A stretch of 64,000 nucleotides of DNA, taken from the NCBI RefSeq assembly GCF_053078305.1, contig NZ_CP166879.1; one strand, written 5' to 3'. The notes beneath the pieces are model-generated. The model made no database searches. It was not told where the DNA came from and saw only the letters and a program-made list of their open reading frames with translations. Position numbers and translations under genes: made by a program. Positions 41,965 through 47,915 of the stretch are shown here, one piece after another (position 1 is the first letter of the stretch; each line of letters opens with the position of its first letter).

Positions 41965-41972
41965 TTTCATTG

Positions 41973-42008
41973 ACAGCCACATCATGATGACCGTGGCTGT
42001 TAGTTTTT
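41973..42008 (+). terminator. Rho-independent terminator of lsrK
   Basis: ACAGCCAC/GTGGCTGT hairpin followed by TAGTTTTTG. Confidence 0.6.
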
Positions 42009-45400: not shown

Positions 45401-47915
45401 TTATGGATTCCGCCTCACGACCGCACCAGGTGATGGTTTGTACGTTAACTATGGGCTGAAAGCGCTGAACATCCATGGTGGGCAAAAGCTGACATTAGCC
45501 GAACATGGCGGAGCCTATGGCGCAATGGCCGATATGTCGGCAAAAATCGGTGGTGAAGGGGATCTGGCAATCAATACGGTGCGACAGGTTTCGCTTTCCA
45601 ACGGTCAGAACGACTATCAGGGGGCAACCTACGTTCAGATGGGTACATTACGTACCGATGCGGATGGTGCACTTGGCAACACCCGGGAACTGAACATCAG
45701 CAACGCGGCCATCGTTGATCTTAATGGATCGACGCAGACGGTAGAGACATTCACCGGGCAGATGGGTTCGACTGTTTTGTTCAAAGAGGGGGCGCTGACG
45801 GTAAATAAAGGTGGGATCAGTCAGGGTGAACTGACAGGTGGCGGAAATCTGAATGTTACAGGGGGAACGCTGGCTATCGAGGGGCTTAATGCACGCTACA
45901 ATGCGTTAACCAGCATTAGCCCAAATGCGGAAGTCAGCCTCGATAATACGCAGGGGTTAGGCAGAGGAAATATTGCCAATGACGGTCTGTTAACGCTAAA
46001 AAACGTGACCGGCGAACTGCGCAATAGCATAAGCGGTAAAGGTATCGTGAGCGCAACCGCCAGCACAGACGTAGAGCTGGATGGCGATAATAGCCGCTTT
46101 GCGGGGCAATTTAACATCGATGCTGGCAGCGCGCTCGGCGTCAACGAGCAGAAAAACCTGGGTGATGCTTCCGTTATCAATAATGGCCTGCTCATCATCT
46201 CCACTGAGCGTAGCTGGGCGATGACGCACAGTATCAGCGGTAGCGGTGATGTGACAAAACTGGGTACCGGGATCCTGACTCTTAACAACGATTCCGCGGC
46301 GTATCAGGGTACGACGGATATCGTGGGTGGTGAAATTGCTTTCGGTTCCGACTCTGCCATTAATATGGCAAGTCAGCACATTAATATCCATAACAGCGGT
46401 GTGATGTCGGGAAATGTCACCACTGCAGGTGATGTGAACGTTATGTCTGGGGGGACACTGCGTGTCGCCAAAACCACAATCGGCGGCAACCTGGAGAATG
46501 GCGGCACGGTTCAAATGAACAGTGAAGGAGGAAAACCGGGGAATGTACTGACCGTTAACGGCAACTATACCGGAAACAATGGCCTGATGACGTTCAACGC
46601 GACGCTGGGCGGCGATAATTCACCCACCGATAAGATGAACGTGAAAGGCGATACCCAAGGGAACACTCGCGTTCGGGTTGATAACATTGGCGGCGTCGGT
46701 GCGCAAACGGTCAACGGTATTGAACTCATTGAGGTTGGCGGTAATTCTGCAGGTAACTTCGCGCTGACCACCGGAACTGTCGAAGCTGGGGCTTACGTCT
46801 ACACGCTGGCTAAAGGGAAGGGGAATGACGAGAAAAACTGGTATCTGACCAGTAAATGGGACGGCGTAACGCCAGCGGATACACCCGATCCCATCAATAA
46901 TCCCCCTGTTGTGGATCCGGAAGGCCCATCAGTTTATCGCCCGGAGGCCGGAAGCTATATCAGCAACATTGCCGCAGCCAACTCGCTGTTTAGCCATCGC
47001 TTACACGACCGTCTGGGTGAGCCGCAGTATACAGATTCACTGCATTCTCAGGGATCGGCAAGCAGTATGTGGATGCGTCATGTCGGGGGACACGAACGTT
47101 TCAGGACCGGTGACGGCCAGCTAAATACTCAGGCTAACCGCTATGTATTGCAGCTAGGCGGAGATTTGGCGCAGTGGAGTAGCAACGCGCAGGATCGCTG
47201 GCATCTTGGCGTCATGGCAGGCTACGCCAATCAGCACAGTAATACTCAGAGTAATCGTGTGGGTTATAAATCGGATGGGCGCATCAGTGGTTACAGCGCT
47301 GGGCTGTACGCGACCTGGTATCAGAACGATTCGAATAAGACCGGCGCTTATGTTGACAGCTGGGCGCTGTATAACTGGTTTGATAACAGCGTCAGTTCCG
47401 ATAACCGTTCTGCTGACGACTATGATTCTCGCGGTGTGACGGCCTCTGTTGAGGGTGGGTATACCTTTGAAGCGGGAACATTTAGCGGCAGCGAAGGGAC
47501 GCTGAATACCTGGTACGTCCAGCCACAGGCGCAAATCACCTGGATGGGTGTGAAAGATTCTGACCATACCCGGAAAGACGGAACACGGATTGAAACGGAA
47601 GGTGACGGAAACGTGCAAACGCGACTTGGGGTGAAAACCTACCTGAATAGCCATCACCAGCGTGACGATGGTAAACAGCGTGAGTTCCAGCCTTACATTG
47701 AAGCGAACTGGATCAACAATAGCAAAGTCTACGCCGTGAAGATGAATGGTCAAACCGTAAGCCGTGATGGTGCGCGTAATCTCGGTGAAGTACGTACCGG
47801 GGTTGAGGCGAAAGTAAATAACAACCTTAGCCTGTGGGGGAATGTCGGTGTGCAACTAGGTGATAAAGGCTATAGCGATACTCAGGGCATGCTGGGAGTG
47901 AAATATAGCTGGTAA
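42495..47915 (+). CDS. Large AIDA-I/pertactin-type autotransporter adhesin (1806 aa) with extended signal peptide region and C-terminal beta-barrel translocator
   Basis: N-terminus MNRIYRVIWN...SELTRR is an ESPR-type signal; repetitive Gly/Thr/Asn-rich passenger; C-terminus ends ...GMLGVKYSW. Confidence 0.9.
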   Translation: MNRIYRVIWNCTLQVFQACSELTRRVGKTSTVNLRKSSGLTTKFSRLTLGVLLALSGSVSGASLEVDNGQITNIDTDVAYDAYLVGWYGTGVLNILAGGNAALTTITTSVIGGNEDSEGTVNVLGGTWRLYDSGNNARPLNVGQSGTGTLNIKQKGHVDGGYLRLGTQAAGVGTVNVEGEDSVLTTELFEIGSYGTGSLNITDKGYVTSSIVAILGYQANSNGKVVVEKGGEWLIKNNDSSIEFQIGNQGTGEATIREGGLITAENTIIGGNATGIGTLNVEDQDSVITVRRLYNGYFGNGTVNISNNGLINNKEYSLVGVQDGSHGVVNVTDKGHWNFLGTGEAFRYIYIGDAGDGELNVSSEGKVDSGIITAGMKETGTGNITVKDKNSVITNLGTNLGYDGHGEMNISNQGLVVSNGGSSLGYGETGVGNVSITTGGMWEVNKNVYTTIGVAGVGNLNISDGGKFVSQNITFLGDKASGIGTLNLMDATSSFDTVGINVGNFGSGIVNVSNGATLNSTGYGFIGGNASGKGIVNISTDSLWNLKTSSTNAQLLQVGVLGTGELNITTGGIVKARDTQIALNDKSKGDVRVDGQNSLLETFNMYVGTSGTGTLTLTNSGTLNVEGGEVYLGVFEPAVGTLNIGAAHGEAAADAGFITNATKVEFGSGEGVFVFNHTNNSDAGYQVDMLITGDDKDGKVIHDAGHTVFNAGNTYSGKTLVNDGLLTIASHTADGVTGMGSSEVTIANPGTLDILASTNSAGDYTLTNALKGDGLMRVQLSSSDKMFGFTHATGTEFAGVAQFKDSTFTLERDNTTALTHAMLQSDSENTTSVKVGEQSIGGLAMNGGTLIFDTDIPAATLAEGYISVDTLVVGAGDYTWKGRNYQVNGTGDVLIDVPKPWNDPMANNPLTTLNLLEHDDSHVGVQLVKAQTVIGSGGSLTLRDLQGDEVEADKTLHIAQNGTVVAEGDYGFRLTTAPGDGLYVNYGLKALNIHGGQKLTLAEHGGAYGAMADMSAKIGGEGDLAINTVRQVSLSNGQNDYQGATYVQMGTLRTDADGALGNTRELNISNAAIVDLNGSTQTVETFTGQMGSTVLFKEGALTVNKGGISQGELTGGGNLNVTGGTLAIEGLNARYNALTSISPNAEVSLDNTQGLGRGNIANDGLLTLKNVTGELRNSISGKGIVSATASTDVELDGDNSRFAGQFNIDAGSALGVNEQKNLGDASVINNGLLIISTERSWAMTHSISGSGDVTKLGTGILTLNNDSAAYQGTTDIVGGEIAFGSDSAINMASQHINIHNSGVMSGNVTTAGDVNVMSGGTLRVAKTTIGGNLENGGTVQMNSEGGKPGNVLTVNGNYTGNNGLMTFNATLGGDNSPTDKMNVKGDTQGNTRVRVDNIGGVGAQTVNGIELIEVGGNSAGNFALTTGTVEAGAYVYTLAKGKGNDEKNWYLTSKWDGVTPADTPDPINNPPVVDPEGPSVYRPEAGSYISNIAAANSLFSHRLHDRLGEPQYTDSLHSQGSASSMWMRHVGGHERFRTGDGQLNTQANRYVLQLGGDLAQWSSNAQDRWHLGVMAGYANQHSNTQSNRVGYKSDGRISGYSAGLYATWYQNDSNKTGAYVDSWALYNWFDNSVSSDNRSADDYDSRGVTASVEGGYTFEAGTFSGSEGTLNTWYVQPQAQITWMGVKDSDHTRKDGTRIETEGDGNVQTRLGVKTYLNSHHQRDDGKQREFQPYIEANWINNSKVYAVKMNGQTVSRDGARNLGEVRTGVEAKVNNNLSLWGNVGVQLGDKGYSDTQGMLGVKYSW

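Follow-up and report, generated by a model that had tools for sequence, protein, structure and literature searches.

An intact ECSE_1600/YneO autotransporter gene between lsrK and hipBA in Escherichia coli, its upstream regulatory region, and its losses in other strains

The chromosomal site between lsrK and hipBA holds a broken autotransporter gene in Escherichia coli K-12, which raises the question of what the site encodes where the gene has not been broken, how such a copy might be controlled, and by which routes it is lost elsewhere. We asked this of a 64,000-nucleotide stretch of contig NZ_CP166879.1 (RefSeq assembly GCF_053078305.1; hereafter "the window"), in which the site is occupied by an intact allele of the chromosomal ECSE_1600/YneO autotransporter (the old ydeK plus ydeU). 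The coding sequence, for a type Va autotransporter of 1806 aa, is a single uninterrupted open reading frame (ORF) at 42495..47915 (+) in the ORF listing of the window. It starts with ATG, a GGAG Shine-Dalgarno sequence can be read at 42484-42487 (7 nt 5' of the ATG), and its translation runs without an internal stop to a C terminus of GVKYSW. An initial annotation, made from the letters alone, had placed an intact 1806-aa gene downstream of lsrK; the ORF listing and translation agree with it, and careful re-translation of 42495..47915 turned up neither frameshifts nor stops. The protein matches the NCBIfam family NF011422 ("ECSE_1600 family autotransporter") from end to end, residues 1-1806 falling on profile positions 1-1806 with a score of 4135.5 bits against a curated cut-off of 2335, and an identical protein is present in RefSeq (WP_044191964.1, "ECSE_1600 family autotransporter [Escherichia coli]"). 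The 90%-identity cluster holding WP_044191964.1 has 18,868 member sequences, truncated members among them, and a further 5,726 fall in another cluster whose representative is 1806 aa long, so that the full-length clusters together comprise approximately 24,600 sequences. Gene order (lsrR-lsrK-autotransporter-hipB-hipA) is that of K-12, PapRG-06-5, and other E. coli: the upstream ORFs (39340-41964) were assigned to lsrR and lsrK by synteny, and the downstream ORFs (48108-49714) gave a HipB equivalog match (E 3e-55) and a HipA N-terminal domain. Public annotation and a paper from 2008 (Oshima 2008; PMC2608844) already cover the gene, its family, the exact protein sequence, and the existence of intact and pseudogene forms.

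The protein has all the parts of a type Va autotransporter: a Sec signal peptide with an ESPR, a beta-helical passenger with an autochaperone, and a C-terminal barrel. The first segment (residues 1 to ~62; 42495..42680, +) consists of the ESPR extension (Pfam ESPR, residues 1-47, E 5.6e-14) followed by a hydrophobic core, LTLGVLLAL, and then by SGA|S, such that signal peptidase would be expected to cleave after S60-G61-A62. The passenger (residues ~63-1331; 42681..46487, +) is predicted from TIGR04393 and PATR matches, periodicity, and an AlphaFold2 model to be a right-handed beta-helix with rungs of ~25 residues. It is capped by an autochaperone, or pertactin-like C-terminal passenger domain (residues ~1332-1452; 46488..46850, +), that is matched by both Pfam AC_1 (E 2.2e-26) and Pertactin (E 1.3e-10) and by the IcsA autochaperone structures 3ML3 and 5KE1 (E 1e-17 and 7e-16). 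The remainder (residues ~1453-1806; 46851..47915, +) comprises a proline-rich linker (12% proline), a pore-spanning segment, and the beta-barrel translocator, which was recognized by the Pfam autotransporter beta-domain PF03797 (residues 1525-1784, E 2e-42) and by TIGR01414 (E 3e-122). The terminal residues, YSW, provide the terminal aromatic seen in type Va barrels, and the closest solved structure by sequence is the AIDA-I translocator (4MEE), aligning to residues 1345-1806 (E 5.5e-87). The ESPR-type signal peptide, repetitive passenger, and barrel ending in W proposed initially were thus each borne out by Pfam and NCBIfam searches and translation, with a strong match to the beta-domain in particular. 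Database labels that call such proteins lipoproteins ("autotransporter barrel domain-containing lipoprotein," "putative lipoprotein YdeK") were rejected: there is no lipobox, because the only cysteines of the protein are residues 11 and 19, within the ESPR, and none lies near the cleavage region (residues 55-65).

Passenger repeats were recognized by TIGR04393 (T5SS/PEP-CTERM repeat) in nine stretches and by PATR profiles, and a GxGxLNI-type motif (GxGx[LVMI][NTRS][ILV]) is present in 16 copies, spaced mostly by 24-26 residues, in the N-terminal half of the passenger (residues 89-617). Among 1.84 billion representatives, 3,346 passenger relatives were found at E ≤ 1e-3 and 325 at E ≤ 1e-30. 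Residues 54-1200, aligned with 31 of the collected relatives, were modeled by AlphaFold2 confidently as one long beta-helix: the model is all-beta with repeated three-strand rungs (mean predicted local distance difference test [pLDDT] score of 90.4; predicted template modeling [pTM] score of 0.74), with longer strands at model residues 796-1001 (protein residues ~849-1054). When compared with the Protein Data Bank by Foldseek, the best matches of the model were Ag43 (7KOH, 7KO9, and 4KH3) and TibA (4Q1Q), at a probability of 1.0 and E of 5e-6 to 2e-4, whereas the protease-type SPATE passengers EspC, EspP, Hap, Pet, and Hbp were not significant (E > 0.05). No catalytic domain was detected in residues 48-1330 by Pfam and NCBIfam searches. 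A search for tandem or direct DNA repeats in the gene returned only two chance pairs of 20-23 nt, plus a trivial 9-bp repeat in the spacer upstream. Variation of passenger length by way of DNA repeats was therefore rejected, the protein repeats being degenerate at the DNA level and the shorter database variants being ordinary deletions. Many E. coli database entries, of 1,440-1,714 aa, are shortened yet keep both ESPR and barrel; in variant P0022 (1672 aa, 9 contigs), an in-frame loss of residues 1311-1444 removes exactly the autochaperone domain. Base composition also changes along the gene (42450..47900), with a GC content of 42-47% in the N-terminal repeat region (to ~44400) and 50-55% in the remainder, a step that could reflect either a mosaic origin of the passenger or amino acid composition.

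How might such a gene be controlled? From the lsrK stop to the ATG lie 530 bp (41965..42494) that, by GC content, conservation, and the K-12 literature on HNS, RpoD, and RpoS, form an AT-rich intergenic regulatory region. Its GC content of 31.7%, compared to 48.3% for the whole window, makes it the most AT-rich stretch of its size there (only 0.09% of 530-bp windows are as low), and it is conserved as well as the gene across the sampled E. coli loci. It has no ORF of at least 80 aa on the + strand. A structured or small RNA within it was considered and rejected, as an Rfam search at gathering thresholds found no family match. Directly 3' of the lsrK stop is a hairpin stem (41969-42004) followed by GUUUUUG; the fold of 41962-42012 has a free energy of -17.4 kcal/mol (z = -3.5), and 0 of 200 shuffled sequences were as stable. 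This hairpin with its U-run (41969..42010, +) is likely an intrinsic terminator of lsrRK that would separate the autotransporter from lsr transcription. The autotransporter gene probably has its own promoter. For K-12 yneO, a constitutive RpoD promoter, CTGACA-17-TTTAAT, has been predicted by genomic systematic evolution of ligands by exponential enrichment (SELEX), and the K-12 lsrK-yneO spacer is flagged "HNS" in the promoter table of the same study (Shimada 2014; PMC3946193); an RpoS holoenzyme SELEX peak has likewise been placed in this spacer (Shimada 2017; PMC5493296). The same hexamers at the same spacing have a single exact match in the window, a predicted sigma-70 promoter at 42413..42441 (+), and the pattern is kept in all sampled E. 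coli loci but two (L022 and L026). A stricter consensus promoter scan of 41900-42560 returned no site. Transcription from the predicted promoter, the sole one put forward in the literature, would leave a 5' untranslated region of only ~50 nt, so that most of the 530 bp would be upstream regulatory DNA; the AT-richness of the "leader" described by the initial annotation stands, but the term itself is a misnomer for what is mainly a regulatory spacer. H-NS silencing of the gene is plausible, being consistent with this AT-richness and with the flag in the K-12 literature.

The spacer also contains a MarA/SoxS/Rob-type marbox, GCACTAATTGCTAAA, at 42206..42220 on the - strand, i.e., backward relative to the gene. 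In enterotoxigenic E. coli (ETEC) H10407, a MarA peak was found by chromatin immunoprecipitation sequencing upstream of ETEC1580 (yneO), and the site there, gcactaattgctaaa, was bound by purified MarA at 0.3 uM, the lowest concentration tested (Sharma 2017; PMC5684230). The window marbox is an exact match to this site and the only one in the window, with 0.02 expected by chance; its center lies 282 bp upstream of the ATG, compared to 283 bp upstream of the start codon in H10407. Most of 25 further E. coli loci have it without a mismatch, and 4 (L005, L006, L023, and L024) have it with one. Transcription from the predicted promoter would be expected to start ~235 bp downstream of the marbox; at a class I or class II distance from the marbox only weak 8-of-12 promoter matches were seen, and the consensus scan gave none. 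A second terminator-like hairpin, GGGGTTTAATAAACCTC with a T-run, is present in midspacer (42185..42210, +), directly abutting the marbox.

How often, and in what ways, is the gene broken elsewhere? In K-12, the site between lsrK and hipB does hold a pseudogene, but the initial annotation, in giving K-12 only a degraded remnant, overstates the damage, because K-12 keeps full-length DNA broken by one extra G. The K-12 derivative AML001_ev02 carries a full-length locus (5,422 bp of gene, 97.6% identical to that of the window) annotated as a frameshifted pseudogene, and its alignment to the window has exactly one indel, an additional G at 46449-46454 with a first stop at aa 1325. This +1 G is the old ydeK/ydeU split of yneO, for which EcoCyc gives the name "AIDA-I family autotransporter YneO" (quoted in PMC10782963). 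In the tabulation of Oshima 2008 (PMC2608844), ECSE_1600 is 1806 aa; SE11 and HS have an intact copy, the copies of MG1655, E24377A, and O157 Sakai are disrupted, and the B2 strains CFT073, UTI89, and 536 have none. Three metagenome contigs (L049, L070, and L071), one of them labeled marine, share the K-12-specific frameshift and its stop at aa 1325; these may represent DNA of laboratory K-12 present in the assemblies.

When 41965-47915 was compared by megablast with 5,426 complete E. coli genomes, the locus was found in 4,366 (~80%), with at least 80% query coverage in 3,958. A systematic spread of 40 matching records was then checked for annotation and re-translated: 16 were intact (one of them 1804 aa), 11 were frameshifted or stopped (9 verified; 2 K-12-derived laboratory strains inferred from match length), 7 were interrupted by insertion sequences (IS1, IS2, IS3, or IS5), and 6 were deleted or partial. 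Roughly 40% of carriers, and hence about one-third of all complete genomes, would thus have an intact gene, a figure with a wide sampling error and drawn from a biased collection. In an independent set of 56 metagenome contigs, the gene was intact in 19 of the 36 that hold it whole. Both the 2008 observations and the 16 of 40 sampled here bear out the earlier suggestion that the gene is kept in some strains and decays in others.

Among the frameshifts, short G tracts stand out. In other E. coli alleles, frameshifts occur most commonly at the equivalent of 46325..46332 (+; codons V1277-G-G-E1280), where most alleles have a G8 homopolymer (GTG GGG GGG GAA) and where the window, together with alleles of several other lineages, has the interrupted equivalent GGGTGGTG (GTG GGT GGT GAA). 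Tract lengths were compared across the RefSeq sample and the 56 metagenome contigs, some calls of which may be assembly errors (long-read genomes and low-coverage contigs). Off-length tracts were found in 4 of 19 uninterrupted RefSeq alleles (G7, G9, G10, and G11) and 8 of 43 uninterrupted metagenome alleles (G9 five times, G7 twice, and G5 once), giving 12/62 when pooled versus 0/20 interrupted alleles from both samples (Fisher p = 0.033). G9 was present on at least 3 haplotype backgrounds. The equivalent of 46325-46332 is, then, a recurrent mutational hotspot. The window allele itself has no hypermutable repeat tract in its coding sequence: GGGTGGTG replaces G8, and elsewhere there are only G6 tracts. 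One of these, at 46449..46454 (+; codons G1319-G1320), is the site of the K-12 frameshift, with G7 in K-12-type alleles and G8 in K-12; another, at 43808..43813 (+; codons 438-440), has a length of G7 in many alleles, and strain 405 has G8 and a frameshift there. Lesions of other kinds include an 8-bp duplication after 46477 in two genomes (5.4-5.5 Mb) and single-base deletions outside homopolymers. In H10407 (L027; NC_017633.1, 1711629-1716829), yneO is a pseudogene through a 220-bp deletion at the window equivalent of 45855.

These tracts invite a reading in which the protein is a contingency-type, phase-variable surface protein: coding G tracts would slip between OFF and ON, the "pseudogenes" would be reversible OFF states, and the window allele, with GGT GGT for GGG GGG, would be a stabilized ON form. 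The excess of off-length tracts among uninterrupted alleles and the several backgrounds carrying G9 fit such a reading, and two more G tracts are the sites of the K-12 frameshift and of one further frameshift. Some frameshifted alleles, L010 and L050 among them, share their flanking sequence exactly with intact alleles, so that their frameshifts must be recent, and switching through homopolymers is an established property of Bordetella and Neisseria autotransporters (e.g., PMC1891110). Eight of the 12 off-length variants came from metagenome assemblies, many with contig names of short-read assemblers. Yet G8 is short for high-frequency switching in mismatch repair-proficient E. coli and may be just a mutational hotspot, and many of the losses are irreversible (insertion sequences, the 220-bp deletion, the 8-bp duplication, and second-site frameshifts or stops in the same gene). 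Moreover, some tract calls may be errors of assembly, in long-read genomes or in metagenome contigs of 2-5x coverage, and the window allele has only G6 tracts. We consider phase variation unlikely on balance. The same low probability attaches to its fuller form, in which G8 and two G7 tracts would flip the gene in most lineages, expression would be gated by H-NS and, through the marbox, by MarA/SoxS/Rob, and GGT GGT alleles would be "locked on"; were it true, homopolymer slippage would join the phase-variation mechanisms of E. coli, and an adhesin would be tied to the mar stress response.

A second reading holds that the gene is intact here by chance and is a silenced, functionless relic heading for the decay seen in K-12. 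It draws on the ~60% of sampled locus-bearing genomes in which the gene is broken and the 20% of genomes without the locus, on the AT-rich, H-NS-flagged region in front of the gene, and on the lack of a known phenotype. Selection on the intact alleles argues otherwise. The ratio of nonsynonymous to synonymous substitution rates (dN/dS) was 0.11-0.13 between the window and 16 other intact alleles, and its median was 0.145 over 124 pairs among the 17, with the passenger similar to the C-terminal part; because dN/dS is ~0.13 among intact alleles, the gene is under sustained purifying selection where it is intact. Pseudocitrobacter species (P. corydidari and P. vendiensis; P0040, P0052, and P0293-P0297) retain orthologues that are 85-86% identical and likewise exactly 1806 aa long, the promoter and marbox are conserved, and the full-length clusters are large, though the one examined includes truncated members. 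A relic is thus very improbable. The relatives that come next, from Citrobacter, have passengers of 44-49% identity; with Pseudocitrobacter at 85-86% and the closer genus Citrobacter at 44-49%, this patchy distribution of orthologues could indicate an old horizontal transfer. No complete RefSeq E. coli genome exceeds 98.6% identity to the window gene; the corresponding values for its flanks are 98.8% and 99.4%. Locus-specific divergence or diversifying selection was rejected on this basis and on the dN/dS of ~0.13; because the flanks are equally distant, the 98.6% reflects divergence of the lineage.

That the passenger is no adhesin but acts at the surface, or once released from it, in some other way, for instance as a toxin or enzyme or in serum resistance or immune evasion, would sit with the varied functions of beta-helix passengers in other autotransporters, with the long strands at model residues 796-1001 (which could be an inserted subdomain), and with the finding of no functional study of this protein in the searchable literature, but residues 48-1330 contain no Pfam or NCBIfam catalytic domain and the matches to Ag43 and TibA are significant while those to protease-type passengers are not, leaving it highly unlikely.

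The reading that we favor, and in which as a whole we have good confidence, is that of an intact ECSE_1600/YneO surface autotransporter, likely an adhesin, that is expressed at a low level and is dispensable but selected. Because Ag43 and TibA are the top folds, protease passengers were insignificant, and no catalytic domain was detected, the modeled passenger appears to be an adhesin-type beta-helix rod; adhesion itself we infer from family and fold. By analogy to the family, the precursor would cross the inner membrane by the Sec route and its barrel would be inserted by the beta-barrel assembly machinery (BAM). The passenger would then be threaded out C terminus first, folding on the autochaperone into a rod at the cell surface that would most likely mediate adhesion, aggregation, or biofilm formation. 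Expression in culture would probably be low, the AT-rich upstream region being an H-NS target in K-12; the conserved high-affinity MarA site and predicted sigma-70 promoter lie in the same spacer. Across E. coli, inactivation often comes about through frameshifts (especially in short G tracts), insertion sequences, and deletions.

Several points weigh against parts of this account. No functional study of ydeK, ydeU, yneO, or ECSE_1600 was found in the searchable literature, which bears on adhesion, surface display, and processing alike. Self-association cannot be assumed, because the repeat type, with ~25-residue TIGR04393 rungs, differs from the 19-residue repeats of self-associating autotransporters. 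The evidence on H-NS stems from K-12 and not from this strain, and derepression of the gene in an hns mutant was not found in the literature searched. The marbox lies too far away for classical class I or class II activation: given ~235 bp to the expected start and no good adjacent promoter, MarA binding may have no effect on the gene. That binding was, moreover, shown in H10407, in which yneO is a pseudogene, and so says nothing about a functional protein. Finally, the gene is dispensable across E. coli, and its frequent loss across the species shows that its function is conditional.

As it stands, the gene is an ordinary one, already catalogued, and matters little, although it makes a reasonable target for experiments, being among the largest E. 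coli autotransporters, intact in an estimated one-third of complete genomes, under purifying selection, and functionally uncharacterized as far as the literature search showed. The modest additions made here are the quantified spectrum of losses, the G-tract hotspot together with its absence from the window allele, the confident beta-helix model with Ag43 and TibA as its nearest folds, and the tie between an intact copy of the gene and two regulatory findings already in print, namely the MarA site and the H-NS/RpoD spacer. G-tract frameshifts offer a concrete mechanism for the repeated loss of an adhesin and would gain moderate interest from a demonstration that they are reversible, and an intact allele without the slippery G8 is a convenient source for cloning and for functional and regulatory tests.

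Elsewhere in the window, the usher gene (52364..54364) of a neighboring F9/yde-type fimbrial operon (50640..56398) is broken in this strain. One ORF (52364-53107) covers profile positions 6-240 of 877 and a second (53216-54364) covers positions 496-877, so that ~650-770 bp are missing; in E. coli the best matches extend over 10,735 bp, compared to 10,085 bp in this strain. Genes for the FimA-like subunit (50640-51251) and for the chaperone (51603-52322) look intact, and the deletion that K-12 carries in this operon is a different and larger one. Further AT-rich troughs (530-bp GC content ≤ 33%), all intergenic, occur at 50157..50747, 58992..59746, and 60215..60943, and in composition this fimbrial and acid resistance segment looks like typical H-NS-bound DNA. 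Rfam searches of the window also identified the Hfq-binding small RNA STnc560 (15657..15872, +; full-length match, 276 bits) and a sok antitoxin RNA of a hok/sok-type locus (3129..3287, +), the latter at 63.5 bits and barely above its gathering score.

Not all features of the window protein are shared by the autotransporters that it most resembles. The C-terminal 460 residues (autochaperone and barrel) are homologous to those of AIDA-I, with the same type Va architecture, but the passenger has another repeat type and the AIDA-I family NF033176 matched only residues 1069-1805 (338.7 bits versus a cut-off of 1200). AIDA-I and TibA are also accompanied by an adjacent heptosyltransferase gene (aah or tibC), whereas the neighbors here are lsrK with the spacer and hipBA. 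MisL and ShdA of Salmonella and YfaL/EhaC of E. coli are likewise large beta-helix adhesins of enterobacteria, and they have homologous translocators and autochaperones (469, 218, and 204 bits, respectively); these scores are far below the equivalog cut-offs (1297, 2249, and 1459 for MisL, ShdA, and YfaL), and the matches cover only the C-terminal 330-500 residues, with passengers that are unrelated at this level. Identity with AIDA-I, MisL, ShdA, or YfaL was accordingly rejected, all four falling below cut-off with C-terminal matches only. Ag43 and TibA, the best structural matches of the modeled passenger, are likewise chromosomal E. coli surface proteins, but they are 12-14% identical in the aligned parts, their TM-scores are low (owing to length and curvature), and their repeats are of ~19 rather than ~25 residues; Ag43 is phase variable through Dam/OxyR. 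The homopolymer-switched autotransporters of Bordetella and Neisseria are similar in having coding G tracts that vary between isolates and set the reading frame (PMC1891110), but the tracts here are short (G6 to G8), and the window allele is without the longest. The closest likeness is to ECSE_1600 of SE11 and YneO of K-12 (b1510 plus b1509, b4696), members of the same family with the same length of 1806 aa and the same lsrK-hipB position, with 97.6% DNA identity to K-12; the K-12 form differs in the extra G at 46449-46454 that makes it a pseudogene, and K-12-type alleles have G8 where the window has GGGTGGTG.

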